From a virus (lineage: Duplodnaviria > Heunggongvirae > Uroviricota > Caudoviricetes), in IMG/VR virus record IMGVR_UViG_2600254985_000007: DNA of 28,904 bases; one strand, written 5' to 3'. The translations under genes and the position numbers were made by a program. Below, in pieces: positions 4,958 through 12,590 of this stretch. The notes under the pieces were generated by a model. The model was not told the origin of the DNA. It ran no database searches and was given only the letters and a program-made list of their open reading frames with translations. How positions within the stretch are numbered: position 1 is the stretch's first letter; each line of letters opens with the position of its first letter.

Positions 4958-6879
4958 TATTCCTCTCCAGACAATGCCCGCGCGTAATCCGCCAGGGTCT
5001 TGTTATTGTTACGGGTGCCTTCTTCCTCCAGCAGGCTGGCAAGAAGTGAATCAAGGTTAAGCTGCCAGCGGGATATGCTTATACGCAGCGCCGCCAGTGC
5101 ATAAACAAAGCAATCGAGCGCCTCATTTCGTCGTTTTTTGCTGTCCCAGACGATCTTTTTCTTTCCGTCTACCCATTTTTCCACCTGCTCTTCAGCTGTT
5201 AGTTGTTGGGCCTCTGTTAGATCGTAGATTTCTGGGTTATTCGGGAAATGAACCGCTCCCGCCAGCGGCTCGTCTCTTTGCGCCACCAGCGTGAAACGGT
5301 TATAAATCTGCTCTTTTGCGGTGTCTGTTCCTACCTCTGTGAGGTAAACACCATTCTTGTTACGCTTGCGTGGCATGTTCGCCACCGGCTTTCCATAAAC
5401 CGACGCCCCCTTTATAGGGATCACACGAAACAGACCGTGTTTTTTTGAGCGGTTGTAGACGATGGTGGGGTCAATACCGCCGATATCCCAGCAGATACGG
5501 GATACCGACATTTCCACGCCATTCTTTCGGAGATAGGTTTTGTTAATCGCCTCGTCCACCCTGACGAGGGTCGCTTCATCATCATGACGGCCCATAATGA
5601 TCTGCCGGTCAATCAGCCAGCTTTCCTCACCGGGCCCCCATCCCCAGACGCGCATTTCATATCGATCCAGTTGGGAGTCGATCCCGGCTGTCAGATAAGC
5701 AACACGCTCCGGTACGGATGCCCCGAAGAACTCTTTGCGTTCGGCCATGAGCTCCGCGTCAGGCCGTTCACCAATTTTAGGCTCCCATGTTTCGCCCAGA
5801 GTGGTGTTCACGAAGGTTTTACGCTTTCCTGTATCCCCTTTCGTTTTTAGCCAGTCTTTAACGATCTGAACCCAGGTGGTAAACGGGCTGTATGCCGTCC
5901 AGATGTGAAACGTCACGCTGTCTGGCGGGTCGATTTCGGTGCCTGTTGATGAAAACCAGGATAAACCGTCGCGCGTCCAGATCCCGGTGGTGTCGCAGAT
6001 GTAACGAGCTTCAGTGAAATCCAGCTCCTGCTGCTTAATGACGCAGGCATTATGTTCACACAGGTAAAAGACGCTGGAGGGTTCGCCCGGTGTCCATTTC
6101 AGCCCGAACGGGGTCTCTTTGTCGCCGAATTTAAGGTACTGCTCTTCACCACAGTGCGGACAGGCAACATGAAAACGCATGAAATGCCCGGACTCGCTGG
6201 CAGCACGCTCAATCTGGCAGGTCCCCTTTGTTTTTGGCGTTGAGCCGCGAATAGATTTGGGCCAGACAGACCCCTCAATACGTTTATCACCCAGGAACGT
6301 CGGGGATCCCTCTTTCTCAATATCTTCATCGAATGCCGCCAGTTCATCGTAACCGGCGACATCGACCGATTTCTCACGATAGTTTTTCGCCGCTTTACCA
6401 CCCAGACACCAGAACCCGCGACCGTTGGAGAAGCGTTTCATACTGAGCGTATTGTCCCGGTGCTTTTTTCCATACCAGGGGGCCAGCGCCAGAAGTGACG
6501 GAATATCGCGAATCGTCGGCTCAACATGCGACTTCATAAAGTTTTCGGCGTCACCATCAGTAGGCAGCCAGATAAGGGAATTTCGCTGCTTGTGCTGAAT
6601 AAAATACGCATAAACACCCAGCAACATTTTTGAATAGCCAACACGGGCAGACTTAACAACGTTGACCTCACGTATGTAATCGTTACCCATCGCATTCATG
6701 ATCGCGCGTTGAAACGGCAACGTTTCCCAGCGCCCTTCCTGGTAGGCCGACTCTTTGGGGAGATAGTAATTATCGTCTGCCCATTCAACCGCCGTTTGCG
6801 GCTCAGGTCGGTACAGCGAAAGTAGACCCGCGCGCGCAGAGTGCTGCAGCCCCTTAACCTGACTGTTCGATATATTCAC
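4957..6879 (-). CDS. A: terminase large subunit, lambda gpA family
   Basis: 640 aa with colinear resemblance to lambda gpA (N-terminal [19 protein letters not shown]...). Confidence 0.95.
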
Positions 6880-7399
6880 TCAGCAACCCCGGTATTATTT
6901 CATCCAGCGCAGCTGCTTTGTTCATGGCTTTAATGATGTCCTTCTTGAGGAAATCAATATGTCGGTTTTCCAGCTCCGGGAAGCGCCGCTGAACCGACAG
7001 AGGAACTCCATCAAGAATGCTGGCTACTTCTCCGGCCATCCGCGACAGCACGAACGTGCAGAATGCGGTTTCCACCACCTCAGCGGAATCTTTTGCATTT
7101 TTTAGTTCCTGGGCATCTGCCTGCGCTCGGGTGAGGCGGTGACGCTCATAGTCAATCGTACCAGGCTGAAGGTCGGATTCCGATGCAAGACGAAGGTCTT
7201 CCACCTCCTTCCGTAATTTCTCATTCTCAATCGCCGCGTCGCGTGCGGAATACCATTCGATAGCCGCGGAAGATTCATAGAGGACCTCATTACCTTTTCC
7301 ACCGCCACGTGCTACAGGCATTCCCTGATCCTGCCAGTTCTGAATGGTTCGCACGCTGACCCCAAATATTTCAGAAAGACGCTTTTTGTTGACCTCCAT
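6854..7399 (-). CDS. Nu1: terminase small subunit, lambda Nu1 family
   Basis: 181 aa, MEVNKKRLSEIFGVSVRTIQNWQDQGMPV... matches lambda Nu1 (winged HTH N-terminus); overlaps A start. Confidence 0.95.
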   Translation of the reverse strand: MEVNKKRLSEIFGVSVRTIQNWQDQGMPVARGGGKGNEVLYESSAAIEWYSARDAAIENEKLRKEVEDLRLASESDLQPGTIDYERHRLTRAQADAQELKNAKDSAEVVETAFCTFVLSRMAGEVASILDGVPLSVQRRFPELENRHIDFLKKDIIKAMNKAAALDEIIPGLLSEYIEQSG

Positions 7400-7640
7400 A
7401 GCTCACTCCATACACAAAAACAGAGAAAGGAAACGCCCTCTGGCTATTTAGCCGTTTTTAAGGCTTATCATTTCCTTTCTTTTCAGGGGGTGTTTACAGT
7501 TAAAACAATGAATTAGCGAGAAGAAGAACGGAAACGGCAAATGCCTGAAAATTTTCATAAATAGCGAGAATCTGCGAGGTCGCCGCCCCGTAACAAGGCG
7601 GATCGCCGGAAAGGACCCGCAAATGATAATAATTATCAAT
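7400..7640 (-). other. cos: cos packaging site region; cosN 12-nt cohesive-end sequence at 7577-7588, cosB toward Nu1
   Basis: Minus strand reads GGGCGGCGACCT (lambda cohesive end) followed by a CGC..TCGCTATTTATG block resembling the lambda left end. Located directly upstream of Nu1. Confidence 0.85.
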
Positions 7641-7646
7641 TGCATA

Positions 7647-8375
7647 CTATCGACGGCACTGCTGCCAGATAACACCACCGGGGAAACATTCCATCATGAT
7701 GGCCGTGCGGACATAGGAAGCCAGTTCATCCATCGCTTTCTTGTCTGCTGCCATTTGCTTTGTGACATCCAGCGCCGCACATTCAGCAGCGTTTTTCAGC
7801 GCGTTTTCGATCAACGTTTCAATGTTGGTATCAACACCAGGTTTAACTTTGAACTTATCGGCACTGACGGTTACCTTGTTCTGCGCTGGCTCATCACGCT
7901 GGATACCAAGGCTGATGTTGTAGATATTGGTCACCGGCTGAGGTGTTTCGATTGCCGCTGCGTGGATAGCACCATTTGCGATAGCGGCGTCCTTGATGAA
8001 TGACACTCCATTGCGAATAAGTTCGAAGGAGACGGTGTCACGAATGCGCTGGTCCAGCTCGTCGATTGCCTTTTGTGCAGCAGAGGTATCAATCTCAACG
8101 CCAAGCGTCATCGAAGCGCAATATTGCTGCTCACCAAAACGCGTATTGACCAGGTGTTCAACGGCAAATTTCTGCCCTTCTGATGTCAGAAAGGTAAAGT
8201 GATTTTCTTTCTGGTATTCAGTTGCTGTGTGTCTGGTTTCAGCAAAACCAAGCTCGCGCAATTCGGCTGTGCCAGATTTAGAAGGCAGATCACCAGACAG
8301 CAACGCGCCACGGAAAAACAGCGCATACAGAACATCCGTCGCCGCGCCGGACAACGTGATAATTTTATGACCCAT
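7647..8375 (-). CDS. hypothetical phage accessory protein (242 aa), between lysis cassette and cos
   Basis: ORF with SD AAGGAA 7 nt upstream of the ATG; no family recognised. Shares a conserved ~110-nt leader with the Rha gene. Confidence 0.7.
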   Translation of the reverse strand: MGHKIITLSGAATDVLYALFFRGALLSGDLPSKSGTAELRELGFAETRHTATEYQKENHFTFLTSEGQKFAVEHLVNTRFGEQQYCASMTLGVEIDTSAAQKAIDELDQRIRDTVSFELIRNGVSFIKDAAIANGAIHAAAIETPQPVTNIYNISLGIQRDEPAQNKVTVSADKFKVKPGVDTNIETLIENALKNAAECAALDVTKQMAADKKAMDELASYVRTAIMMECFPGGVIWQQCRR

Positions 8376-8747
8376 GATTTATTTCCTTTTAGACGTGAGC
8401 CTGTCGCACAGCAAAGCCGCCGAAAGTTAACGGTTTGCCCAGGCTCACAACTGAAAGACTTTCTACGGTGTGCGCGTGCGATGCGCGTAGAAGACTGATT
8501 TATCAACCTGTCTTTATATCAGGATTCATTACCTGACTATTTGTGGGTAAAGTTCGTAGTGCGCTGATCGTGCAAAATGATTTTAGTTGGGAACAGTTCG
8601 CAACTCTGTCCCATAAAAATCAGCATATTCCCATCTATCCCATATCCAGCGCATTGACCATCGGGATACTGAAGGGAGATTCCATCATCTCTTAGAAAGA
8701 TCACCATCTCTTTTGTTTCAATTTGCATATAGCTACCTGGAGGATTT

Positions 8748-9362
8748 ATGAATACAAGGATTTTCATGGACTATTACCATGAGATTGATTTTCCATCTTT
8801 ATTCGCGAGAGCAGTGGAAAGCGATGACGATGTGGGTACTACATTGCGCATTCACCTACTTTGTGAGCGCATGGTCGAAGCATGGATATGCGCATGCTGT
8901 GACTGCCAAGATCTCTTTGGAAGAGATAAAAACAAACTTTTAATCGAATGTAATACTAAAATATCCATGGCGGGAAACCTGGGAATCCCCCCGGAACTTA
9001 TGAAATCACTTAAAACCATCAACTCAATGCGTAATGACCTTGCACACAATCCATCAATACAAAGCATTGCTGATTCAAGGATCCAGAGCCTGAAGGATAC
9101 TCTGACTGAATACTTTAAACAGCATCCAACGGAACCCAGCATGGAAGAATCAAAACTGGGTATTTTTAACGCCGAGAATCAATTAACCGAAGAAGTTTCC
9201 TTAGATAGTGACAGTTCAAAAAACAGACTTAAGTTAATCTTGCTGTTCAGCAAGTTAATGCAGGCGTTAATGCAATTAGTTGCAGCTAATCATAATGGGC
9301 GCTGGGATAACCAATTTAGCCAATTCGTTTACCATGTGACCATGAACGCAACAAAGAGATAA
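8748..9362 (+). CDS. hypothetical protein, AT-rich opposite-strand gene; contains an R-x4-H motif (possible HEPN-like fold)
   Basis: 204-aa ORF on the opposite strand to all flanking late genes; GGAGG upstream of the ATG; markedly AT-rich; contains MRNDLAHN. No family assignment possible by eye. Confidence 0.65.
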   Translation: MNTRIFMDYYHEIDFPSLFARAVESDDDVGTTLRIHLLCERMVEAWICACCDCQDLFGRDKNKLLIECNTKISMAGNLGIPPELMKSLKTINSMRNDLAHNPSIQSIADSRIQSLKDTLTEYFKQHPTEPSMEESKLGIFNAENQLTEEVSLDSDSSKNRLKLILLFSKLMQALMQLVAANHNGRWDNQFSQFVYHVTMNATKR

Positions 9363-9433
9363 ATCCAAGCCCGTTTTGTACGGGCTGTTGCATTATCACA
9401 GGCACTCAGTGAATGCCTGCTGTAATGCCGCGA

Positions 9434-9952
9434 TCAGCCAATCAACAATTCTGGCTGCGTTACCTGCATGATGTGCTCATGTTCGAGCTCCAGGACGCGC
9501 TTCTCTTTCTTCCGCTCGTTCATCAAACGGCTTCCGATCGTGCCTTTCAGCTTTGAGCGCGTTTCTTTGATGGCGTAGCGATGCTGCAATTCTTCACCCA
9601 TCGCCATGCGCCGGTTTAGCTGCTCGGCCATCCAGTTGAAGGCATTGATGTAACACTCCTTCACTGCGGCAGCTGTTTTGCCAGTGAATCCCATCACTAG
9701 CATCATGCATCCGTCGCGGGTGATGTTATACATAGGCTGAACATCGCCATTTTTATCAATGAAATCAATGGGCGCAAAATTGCGCTGGGTGAAGTCATCG
9801 GAGCATTTCAGGTTACGTATGGCACGCAAAACGTCTTTGTGTCGCTTGCCAAAGTAATCCGCCACCTTGAGTGATGTGGTGATTATCTTGTTGTCGAGGG
9901 TCGTGACCATTTCGCGGAAGTCGAAGGCCGGAATAACTGACGGATTATTCAT
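9434..9952 (-). CDS. rha: phage regulatory protein Rha family
   Basis: N-terminal block ...ITTSLKVADYFGKRHKDVLRAIRNL... is typical of Rha (Phage_pRha) proteins. Start assigned to the internal ATG at 9950-9952 (MNNPSV). Confidence 0.75.
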   Translation of the reverse strand: MNNPSVIPAFDFREMVTTLDNKIITTSLKVADYFGKRHKDVLRAIRNLKCSDDFTQRNFAPIDFIDKNGDVQPMYNITRDGCMMLVMGFTGKTAAAVKECYINAFNWMAEQLNRRMAMGEELQHRYAIKETRSKLKGTIGSRLMNERKKEKRVLELEHEHIMQVTQPELLIG

Positions 9953-10094
9953 AGCGTCTTTACCTTTTAGAAAGTGAGCCTGTCTCACAGAAAAGCCGCC
10001 CGAGAGAGGTCGCCACCTATAACGGCATTTCTCAGGCTCGCTTACTGAAAGGCTCTCGTTAATATGCGCGTGAGATGCGCGTTTACTGCGGACA

Positions 10095-10119
10095 TAAAAA
10101 AGCCCCGCATCGCGAGGCT
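10095..10119 (-). terminator. intrinsic terminator downstream of Rz
   Basis: Minus strand GCCTCGC-GAT-GCGGGGC hairpin (7 bp with one G-U) followed by TTTTTTAT. Confidence 0.6.
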
Positions 10120-10150
10120 CATTAAATTGACTTTGTGATTTGCAAAAAAA

Positions 10151-10609
10151 TTATTTCAGGCATTGCGTCCTGATGTATTCCTGCAGGTAGTTAACCTGCG
10201 CGGTTATCCTGTCGATTCCACTTCGGAGACGGTAATAATTGAGTTCAGCATCTGCTGTAAGTCTTGGGCTTTCTCCATCGCCCATGCTGCTGGCTCCGGT
10301 CGTTGACTTTGCACAGGTGGCGGCGACTTGCAGCCGCTTACGGCCAGCAATGACATCGCTATGCAGACGCTCAATGGTTTCTTTCGCATCAGCCAGTTCT
10401 CCGGTGTATTTGGCATCCAGTGCAGCGACATCACGCTGACGGGTCTGCATGTCTTTGATGGTGTCGTTAGCCAGGCGGAGACTTTTGGTGGCTTTGTCGC
10501 GCTGGTCTTTGTAGGTGATGGCGTTGTCGCGGTAGTGGTTAATGGCCCAGGCCATGGAAACCAGCAGGCAGATAACGACAGCGCAGATGATTGCGGTTAA
10601 TCGGCTCAT
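10151..10609 (-). CDS. Rz: i-spanin Rz
   Basis: [39 protein letters not shown]... closely resembles lambda Rz; ATGA overlap with the endolysin stop. Confidence 0.9.
10204..10389 (-). CDS. Rz1: o-spanin Rz1 (lipoprotein), embedded in the +1 frame of Rz
   Basis: [27 protein letters not shown]...: signal peptide with lipobox LAVSGC and a proline-rich mature part, nested inside Rz as in lambda. Confidence 0.8.
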
Positions 10610-11100
10610 TTCTGGCCCCACTCGCAGACTTCACGCTCAATCTCGCGCCGGGTGATCAGCCCCTTCCACTGCTTGCCGCCAGCATAAGTCCAGCGCTGCA
10701 GTTCTTTACACGCACCCGGAACATCACCGGAGTTCAGCTTCTTCAGCAGCGTCGAGCTGGCAAAAGCACCAGAGCCAACGTTATAGGTGAAGGAGTAAAG
10801 CGCGGCGCGGGTTGGCTCAGGGATGCGAACCTTGATCAGCGGGTCGATGGCGCTTGCCACCTTTCGCAGATCTGCCTTAAGCAGGTTGTCACACTCTTTG
10901 TCGGTATATCGGTGACCGCGGCGAATGTCGGTACCAGTGTGCCCATCGCAAACGGTCCAGACGCCGACCACATCCTGATAGGCGTAATAACGCCGACCTT
11001 CGAGTCCATCCGCATTGCCCAGCATTACTGCAGCAATAGTGATTGCCCCTGATCCGCCAACAATGGCACCCACCAGCTTATTCCTCAACGTTGGGTTCAT
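10606..11100 (-). CDS. R: SAR endolysin (phage lysozyme, P21 R-like)
   Basis: 164 aa; N-terminal Gly/Ala-rich signal-anchor-release segment then ...[26 protein letters not shown]...[28 protein letters not shown], resembling P21-type lysozymes. Confidence 0.9.
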
Positions 11101-11780: not shown

Positions 11781-12590
11781 TCATCTCGTTACTTTTGAGA
11801 GAATGGAATCAGCCATAGACTCCTGTTTATGGCATTCGGCGACCAACTCCTCAAATAGCGGCTGAAGTTGCTCATATGCCGCCGTTTTCTTTATCTCCGC
11901 AACAGTATTAACGCCCTCAATTACCGTTGAGAACTTAAGCCTGGCGTAACCTCTACCACCGCAGCGGTCGCAGGCTTTCATTACTGGAACGCCCTGGCGA
12001 TCGCTTTCTGCCTTGTCCAGCACCTTACCTTTGCCATGGCAGCGACACGAATTGCTGATAACGCCTTTTCCGTTACACGGCTTGCACTTAACTCGCACCA
12101 CCTCACGCGCCTGTGTCCAGCTCTCCCAGTCGCTTGGGCGAACGGCACGCGACATTTTCGACCAGTAAGGCGGTTTCCCCCATGGGTATGAGACCTTGTT
12201 GGTAAACACTTGCGCCTCTGTAAATCCGCCACCATCACAGCAATCACATTTTCGAGTGCTGGCAGCACTTCTTGAATAATCCTGGTATGCAAAAGCGCAG
12301 AGAACCTTAAGCACGCCTGACCGAGCTGATTCATCGAGTTCAGACAGTGCTCTGAATTTACCTGATAACTTACGTGCCTGCTCATAGAGTCTCTCCAGTG
12401 CTATATCTGGGCTGCTAATGCCGATTTTCGAGAGGTAAAGATCGAAACCAAACCCGCACTTGTGGCCAGCAAGGCCAAGCGCCGCCATAACGTCAGTGCC
12501 GGTGAGACTGTCTGATGCGGTTGCGCGAGGAGAGTCACTGAACATCGGTGATTTAGGCGCAAAGTATTTAGCGATTGATTCGAGGTTCAT
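11781..12590 (-). CDS. Q: late gene antiterminator Q (lambda Q family, longer than lambda Q with extra Cys-rich segment)
   Basis: MNLESIAKYFAPKSPMFSDSPRATASDSLTGTDVMAALG... and C-terminal ...VAECHKQESMADSILSKVTR match lambda Q; central region has additional CxxC pairs. Confidence 0.88.
   Translation of the reverse strand: MNLESIAKYFAPKSPMFSDSPRATASDSLTGTDVMAALGLAGHKCGFGFDLYLSKIGISSPDIALERLYEQARKLSGKFRALSELDESARSGVLKVLCAFAYQDYSRSAASTRKCDCCDGGGFTEAQVFTNKVSYPWGKPPYWSKMSRAVRPSDWESWTQAREVVRVKCKPCNGKGVISNSCRCHGKGKVLDKAESDRQGVPVMKACDRCGGRGYARLKFSTVIEGVNTVAEIKKTAAYEQLQPLFEELVAECHKQESMADSILSKVTR

Follow-up and report, generated by a model that had tools for sequence, protein, structure and literature searches.

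The tai–ati segment of phage phi80: a defence/counter-defence cassette and its relationship to the tail-tip sensor HepS

The stretch of DNA analysed here (the window; 28,904 nucleotides, IMG/VR record IMGVR_UViG_2600254985_000007) corresponds to phage phi80 in reverse-complemented orientation. An AT-rich segment (8520–9430) between its lysis and packaging genes carries two divergent genes, taiEcA and atiEcA, and we propose that this segment is a defence/counter-defence cassette with a HepS-type mechanism that is triggered by the central tail fibre protein J. We assign this explanation as a whole a probability of about 0.8. Both genes have been characterised before; the object is therefore not new and yields no new biology by itself. 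What is new is a homology link between Tai and HepS, two defence systems that were published independently.

In their study of phi80, He et al. (2024, Nat Commun 15:7539, PMC11364771) named orf63 taiEcA, for "tail assembly inhibition", and orf64 atiEcA. Positions 8400–9450 of the window match JX871397 and NC_021190 at 100% over 1051 nucleotides (nt) by megablast, and this sequence is shared by E. coli laboratory strains with phi80 derivatives, DH5alpha among them. The two open reading frames (ORFs) are 100% identical to PHI80_63 and PHI80_64 and have the divergent, "non-contiguous operon" layout described in that study. The calculated Tai mass of 23.4 kDa is consistent with the 26.1 kDa reported for the 3xFLAG form. 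We consider the identity of the segment as phi80 tai–ati, together with its role in defence, virtually certain.

According to the same study, a phi80 lysogen blocks phages HK106, HK544 and HK578 in a tai-dependent manner. The protection acts at the population level: cultures survive when the multiplicity of infection is low and lyse when it is high. Phage DNA enters normally, as judged by Southern blots and cos-plasmid transfer, and replicates normally, and the particles made are tailless capsids only. In escape mutants, substitutions are found in the C-terminal part of J, and the J protein of phi80 itself has a Tai-sensitive C-terminus. Deleting orf64 lowers the phi80 titre, and the survivors bear insertions in orf63. 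Expression of tai in the lysogen is constitutive; the protein is detected there, and its level drops when Q is expressed. Binding of Tai to Ati was demonstrated for the SalB pair. PMC11364771 uses none of the words HEPN, domain and motif and assigns no fold or motif to Tai. A preliminary description of the segment, made from the sequence, had suggested an abortive-infection or toxin-type protein; defence has indeed been shown for the same gene, there as a tail-assembly blocker and not as a ribonuclease (RNase).

Relationship of Tai to HEPN proteins and HepS

The residues R95-N96-D97-L98-A99-H100 of TaiEcA lie in the octapeptide MRNDLAHN (residues 94–101), which the preliminary description had likened to the R-x4-H motif of HEPN-type RNases while judging the motif by itself to be weak evidence. 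The general HEPN pattern is R-x4-6-H, in which N, D or H usually follows the arginine, and the TaiEcA residues fit it. Conservation across the family strongly favours this assignment. A word-indexed homologue search returned 19 clusters, all of Enterobacterales type, and R95, N96, A99 and H100 are invariant in these close Tai homologues. Extending the search with a profile to 1.84 billion representatives gave 210 proteins at E ≤ 0.001. Among the full-length members, clustered at 50% identity, R-N-x-x-[A/S/G]-H is found at the equivalent place in 149 of 151, far beyond a chance match. In an alignment of 139 representatives with a mean column identity of about 16%, the motif arginine is kept in 137 members and the asparagine and histidine in 138 each, and the only nearly invariant positions other than the initiator are H36, E40, K71, R95, N96 and H100.

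Searches with the single sequence were far less informative. TaiEcA alone matched nothing in Pfam or NCBIfam and nothing meaningful among the PDB sequences, and in PADLOC it matched two CARF_HEPN models weakly (E = 0.004–0.012). Because these direct searches did not reveal the link to HEPN proteins and HepS, a family profile and a structure model were needed to find it. When the 139 members were scanned individually against Pfam, weak matches were obtained to HEPN_RiboL-PSP (41 members), Abi_2 (28) and HEPN_Cthe2314 (24), and others to HEPN_Apea, Swt1, HepT and Csm6_HEPN. The AlphaFold2 model of TaiEcA (predicted local distance difference test score (pLDDT) 84.5, predicted template modelling score 0.82) is a helical bundle with one beta hairpin, and it contains the all-alpha, up-down bundle core that is expected of a HEPN protein. 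No membrane segment is predicted. The 17 C-terminal residues (188–204) are predicted to be disordered, yet this end of the protein is conserved (W186, N188, Q192). Motif, family profile and model together support the assignment of TaiEcA to the HEPN family as a protein with an R-x4-H motif.

HepS of the prophage Gifsy-1 (Sargen et al. 2026, Nature 652:201, PMC13043305; PDB 9oij and 9oik) is a tRNA anticodon nuclease, with the J tail tip as its activator. It is made constitutively as an inactive tetramer, and its trigger is a 32-residue segment of J (lambda residues 902–933, with F924 as the key residue) that is bound while J is being synthesised. Binding takes place far from the catalytic motif and makes both terminal segments of HepS (N- and C-terminal) order into a beta sheet that they share, which opens two active sites. 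R100 and H105 are both needed for RNA cleavage, and the H105A mutation abolishes protection. Sargen et al. describe the block of tail-tip folding and the cleavage of tRNA as working together. Gifsy-1 tolerates its own system by having an isoleucine at the F924 position of its J.

The comparison of Tai with HepS is consistent across methods. The 139-member Tai profile finds HepS (9oij_A) among the PDB sequences at E = 1.1e-18, and hhalign aligns the Tai family with HepS at 98.4% probability (E = 6.8e-15), whereas a direct BLASTP comparison of TaiEcA with HepS covers only 30 residues around the motif, at 47% identity. A Foldseek search with the TaiEcA model returns HepS chains as its top four matches (probability 1.00, template modelling score 0.50–0.60). 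Non-catalytic MtlR-type relatives score below HepS, and the structural similarity extends over the whole protein, beyond the generic HEPN core. R95, N96 and H100 of TaiEcA align with the catalytic R100, N101 and H105 of HepS. We conclude from these profile alignments and the predicted model that Tai and HepS form one homologous protein family. The preliminary description had named two findings that would speak against a HEPN protein, a predicted structure lacking a HEPN-like helical bundle and a motif that is not conserved among homologues; both were looked for, and neither was observed.

Further parallels concern the trigger. Both proteins are escaped via the same part of J, and the conserved, disordered C-terminus of TaiEcA may correspond to the trigger-binding tail of HepS, which becomes ordered only when the trigger binds. 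Residues 1029–1120 of phi80 J align with lambda J 840–931, and the equivalent of lambda F924 is kept in phi80 as F1113, which fits the published need of phi80 for an antidote. PMC13043305 mentions neither Tai nor phi80, the 2024 and 2026 papers do not cite each other, and a full-text search of the searchable library found no paper that links Tai with HEPN or HepS.

Proposed mechanism and alternative explanations

In the mechanism we propose, taiEcA, which is expressed constitutively in the lysogen, yields a standalone HEPN protein of the HepS family. When another lambdoid siphophage replicates, Tai would most likely engage the C-terminal, central-straight-fibre part of nascent J; we infer this contact from the escape mutations in J and from HepS. 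With Tai on J, no tail tip and hence no tails would form, which accounts for the release of only non-infectious, tailless particles, a phenotype shown experimentally for this gene. Binding of the trigger would also open the R95/H100 active site and probably lead to RNA cleavage, most likely in tRNA anticodon loops. We judge this nuclease step of TaiEcA more likely than not. Ati would be produced from the Q-dependent late transcript only and would neutralise Tai during the lytic growth of phi80 itself, which carries atiEcA because its own J has a Tai-sensitive C-terminus. Since phages escape Tai and HepS, as members of one family, via the same part of J, a dual mechanism is the most likely one. 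The complete combination, in which Tai and HepS are one family, nascent J is both sequestered and used to switch on a HEPN anticodon nuclease, and Ati is the first protein known to inhibit a HepS-type sensor-nuclease, is in our estimate slightly better than an even bet.

The Ati side of this mechanism is marked by a consistent gene arrangement. About 20 nt upstream of tai there is a divergent Ati-like ORF in phi80 and in all five further distinct loci (L002, L003–5, L006, L007 and L008), with Ati identities down to 40% across the loci examined. The preliminary description had treated the AT-rich segment as a single gene; it was right about tai and overlooked this second, divergent gene on the minus strand, its functional partner. 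As annotated in GenBank, Ati has 76 amino acids (aa) and its gene overlaps the start of tai by 20 nt; a start at Met14 (ATG 8728) would give a protein of 63 aa and a spacer of 19 nt. Met14 is the start in most Ati homologues and in the RefSeq annotation of another E. coli prophage, and the conservation of the 13 extra N-terminal residues coincides with the N-terminal codons of tai on the opposite strand. From these sequence comparisons, the GenBank start of PHI80_64 is probably too long and ATG 8728 the likelier one. The Ati model is a four-stranded beta meander (pLDDT 86.9) with no significant structural neighbours, and family and structure searches found neither an MNT nucleotidyltransferase nor a known antitoxin fold. 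We also considered Ati as a mimic of the J trigger segment and rejected the idea, the resemblance seen by eye being no better than chance. The late transcript necessarily crosses all of tai in antisense before it reaches ati, which fits the published drop in Tai upon Q expression (PMC11364771).

Several observations weigh against the mechanism proposed above. PMC11364771 explains Tai by direct steric inhibition alone and contrasts it with abortive infection, and binding of Tai to J could not be shown in that study, J being insoluble. Cleavage of tRNA is demonstrated for HepS only. RNase activity in the HEPN superfamily is metal-independent and comes from a composite dimeric active site, and we infer such activity of TaiEcA from its homology to HepS and the extreme conservation of the motif. 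The two proteins share about 23% identity over 115 aligned positions, and residues involved in activation or tetramerisation of HepS (Y20, I107, K78) are not conserved in TaiEcA. Lambda triggers HepS, yet no tested version of Tai blocks lambda (PMC11364771), so that the specificity of Tai differs from that of HepS. HepS is described as "solo", with homologues reported without a partner (PMC13043305), whereas the TaiEcA clade has Ati. Finally, no sigma-70 promoter for tai was found at the standard scan threshold; the best candidate from a relaxed scan is weak, and conservation at that site is confounded by the coding constraint on ati.

A purely steric action, close to the published account, would have Tai bind J or another tail-tip factor, with the HEPN fold as a scaffold and R-x4-H non-catalytic in defence. 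This is rather unlikely in our judgement. The near-invariance of the arginine, asparagine and histidine in a family whose other columns average about 16% identity is hard to explain without selection on an active site, and the relatives that do lack catalysis, those of MtlR type, score below HepS. In HepS itself, moreover, the trigger site is distant from the motif, protection is lost in H105A, and cleavage depends on R100 as well as on H105 (PMC13043305). Two small adjacent genes, one of them encoding a HEPN protein, might suggest a classical toxin–antitoxin addiction module, in which a constitutively toxic Tai RNase would always be held by Ati and would stabilise the prophage; the selection of tai-inactivating insertions upon loss of ati (PMC11364771) would suit such a module. 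The published data nevertheless lead us to reject it as very improbable. Tai is present in the lysogen whereas ati lies on the Q-dependent late transcript; non-lysogens expressing cloned tai alone from pBAD served for plaque assays in which Ati was absent; and the defect of the ati deletion is a lower titre on induction, not a sick lysogen (all PMC11364771). In addition, Ati has no MNT or known antitoxin fold, and the genes are divergent rather than co-transcribed.

Least probable of all, and hardly worth entertaining, are superinfection exclusion, some other non-defence moron function, or a chance ORF. Exclusion morons such as cor or bor typically sit among the late genes, as tai does, but DNA entry is normal in the Southern blot and cos-plasmid transfer experiments (PMC11364771), on which we reject exclusion, and Tai is predicted to be a soluble helical bundle with no membrane segment. 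A chance ORF is ruled out by the roughly 210 family representatives found at E ≤ 0.001. The J-triggered, HepS-type cassette is our preferred explanation of the segment.

Known systems with other HEPN proteins differ from Tai. Unlike HepT/MntA, Csm6/Csx1, AbiD/F (Abi_2) and RnlA/LsoA, TaiEcA has no MNT partner, CARF domain or direct Pfam match, and the adjacent, co-transcribed MNT antitoxin by which type II HEPN–MNT pairs are recognised is absent from the tai locus. Those toxins are activated by loss of an antitoxin or by cyclic oligoadenylate, whereas Tai-type proteins would be activated by a phage structural protein. Tha/Ith, a system of Staphylococcus aureus prophages (Rostol et al. 2024, as cited in PMC11364771 and PMC13043305), is described by Sargen et al. 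as wholly distinct: its RNase is non-specific and its trigger is another tail protein. The Tab system of Pseudomonas aeruginosa prophages, as cited in PMC11364771, resembles Tai in combining a prophage tail-assembly blocker with a self-protecting counter-defence protein; it is likened to Tai by description, and no HEPN motif is reported for it in that account.

If TaiEcA is a trigger-activated nuclease, the claim that it acts by direct inhibition and not by abortive infection needs revision. Ati would then be useful for finding out how HepS-type nucleases are turned off, and the approximately 210 family representatives could be given an annotation as HEPN defence proteins that sense the tail tip.

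The cassette, its genomic slot and its transcription signals

The segment is a discrete accessory cargo cassette, as its composition and borders support. The whole window has a GC content of 51.7%, and its lowest stretch is at positions 8520–9430, with 41.4%; this value lies within the lowest 0.4% of all 911-nt windows, and all windows that low overlap the same spot. Conserved flanks (8377–8492 and 9391–9427) stand on either side of the insertion and are 898 bp apart in phi80 and 167 bp apart in phage mEp390. The AT-richness noted in the preliminary description is confirmed and the horizontal acquisition it suggested is supported. Its observation of a 204-aa gene opposite to all flanking late genes is also confirmed: the minus strand carries rha, the ORF at 8537–8767, orf66, Rz, lysozyme, holin, Nu1 and terminase.

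The pair also occurs in unrelated backbones and at other genome positions. An unrelated E. coli prophage has it between its lysis and packaging genes; it is also present in Citrobacter prophages whose packaging module differs and, in another locus, next to an HNH/terminase module. Distant relatives with 47–51% Tai identity have tai–ati inside tail gene clusters (L006 3782–4606; L007 218–1059), where sensor and antidote sit within the operon that makes the predicted trigger. One of these pairs adjoins a tail terminator/Big_2 major tail gene and the other a minor tail gene. Among 50,697 sequenced phages searched by tblastn, a detectable Tai homologue was found only in phi80 and in one Salmonella phage (27.7% identity).

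The right border of the slot is a conserved hairpin element just past the rha stop codon. Its 35-nt core (9393–9427) recurs without mismatch in at least 120 viral contigs of IMG/VR (L012–L131), and the element also matches many Klebsiella and E. coli phages. In 28 of these contigs the left flank is present too, on the same strand and 153–1426 bp away, and the cargo enclosed is varied, low in GC and mostly of unknown function. It includes membrane proteins of 176–192 aa, a DUF6236 protein, DUF551 proteins, a BamE-like lipoprotein and several ORFs without a family. Only three of the 120 listed contigs that have the 35-nt element carry tai–ati. With its conserved borders, the slot between the lysis and packaging genes looks like a hot spot for cargo, and like a source of further unknown cargo genes.

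Of the features that mark a moron, the segment has the insertion and the deviant composition, with a hairpin after the tai stop codon and no convincing promoter in the scans. Two hairpins between tai and rha had been proposed in the preliminary description. The first, placed there at 9369–9387, is real and lies at 9368–9386, with a perfect 7-bp stem (−15.5 kcal/mol, z = −3.8); it is possibly a weak terminator of tai. The other, which belongs to the conserved border element, lies at about 9399–9421, slightly to the left of the proposed 9409–9429, with arms at 9390–9408 and 9410–9428 (79% complementarity), and it folds significantly on the minus strand only (−18.5 kcal/mol, z = −2.7). A terminator scan called neither hairpin, as both lack a proper T-run, and we reject them as canonical intrinsic terminators. 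Because the spacer between tai and ati is only 19 nt, the tai promoter would have to lie inside ati, as does the candidate listed in the table. Homologues of Ati bear the database name "Fur-regulated protein", which we find unsupported: the best match to a Fur box across 8350–9450 has 12 of 19 positions, a score reached by 82% of shuffled sequences.

The late region and the J-like neighbour orf66

Coordinates of the cassette and of the surrounding late genes are collected in the table. No known RNA families were found across 7300–10300. PHI80_65, an annotated ORF of 99 aa (8199–8498, plus strand) antisense to the start of orf66, matches no PHROG family, and the RefSeq copy of the orf66–ati–tai block carries no such annotation; it is probably not a gene.

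Table. Positions of the cassette, its predicted elements and neighbouring phi80 genes in the window
Feature	Position	Strand	Remarks
tai–ati cassette	8493–9390		low-GC insertion (GC 0.40–0.41) with conserved flanks on either side
taiEcA (PHI80_63, orf63)	8748–9362	plus	204 aa; predicted HepS-family HEPN defence protein; antisense to late operon
R95-N96-D97-L98-A99-H100 codons	9030–9047	plus	HEPN R-x4-H motif
atiEcA (PHI80_64, orf64)	8537–8767	minus	small beta-protein antidote; late-operon strand; GenBank form, 76 aa
Best candidate sigma-70 promoter of tai	8654–8681	plus	TTGACC, 16-nt spacer, GAGATT; 8 of 12 consensus positions in relaxed scan; inside ati coding sequence
GC-rich hairpin	9368–9374/9380–9386	plus	6 nt past tai stop codon, inside cassette
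Conserved hairpin element	9391–9427		right border of cargo slot, just past rha stop codon
Late operon (phi80 annotation)		minus	order: Q, pR', holin, lysozyme, Rz/Rz1, terminator, rha, PHI80_64, PHI80_66, cosQ/cos, Nu1, terminase
Q	11781–12590	minus	phi80 annotation
Rz/Rz1	10151–10621	minus	phi80 annotation
rha	9434–9988	minus	phi80 annotation
orf66 (PHI80_66)	7647–8375	minus	next gene to ati, last before cos
Nu1	6854–7399	minus	phi80 annotation

The gene next to ati, orf66, encodes a protein with a J-like part. Its residues 83–142 resemble phi80 J 1063–1129 (33% identity over 67 aa; two-sequence BLASTP, E = 5e-4), and it matches the Pfam domain PF09327, Phage_Tail_Tip, above the gathering score (E = 5.7e-5). 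Since PF09327 spans lambda J 845–972, the domain includes the HepS trigger. The N-terminal part of about 80 aa, similar to gp59 of N15 and phiKO2, is widespread, and the J-like C-terminal part is found only in phi80-type copies.

We do not count orf66 among the fixed components of the system: none of the other tai loci examined contains it, and its single deletion has no reported defect (PMC11364771). In one unrelated E. coli prophage (L002 5174–6994), orf66, ati and tai do recur together as a 1.8-kb block that is 97.4% identical to positions 7624–9431 of the window. The backbone of that prophage differs, with a DUF1441 small terminase, a ClpP–capsid fusion and no rha. In the alignment with phi80 J, F126 of orf66 coincides with F1113, the equivalent of lambda F924. 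More speculatively, judging from this resemblance, orf66 could act as a J-like decoy or modulator of tail-tip sensors.

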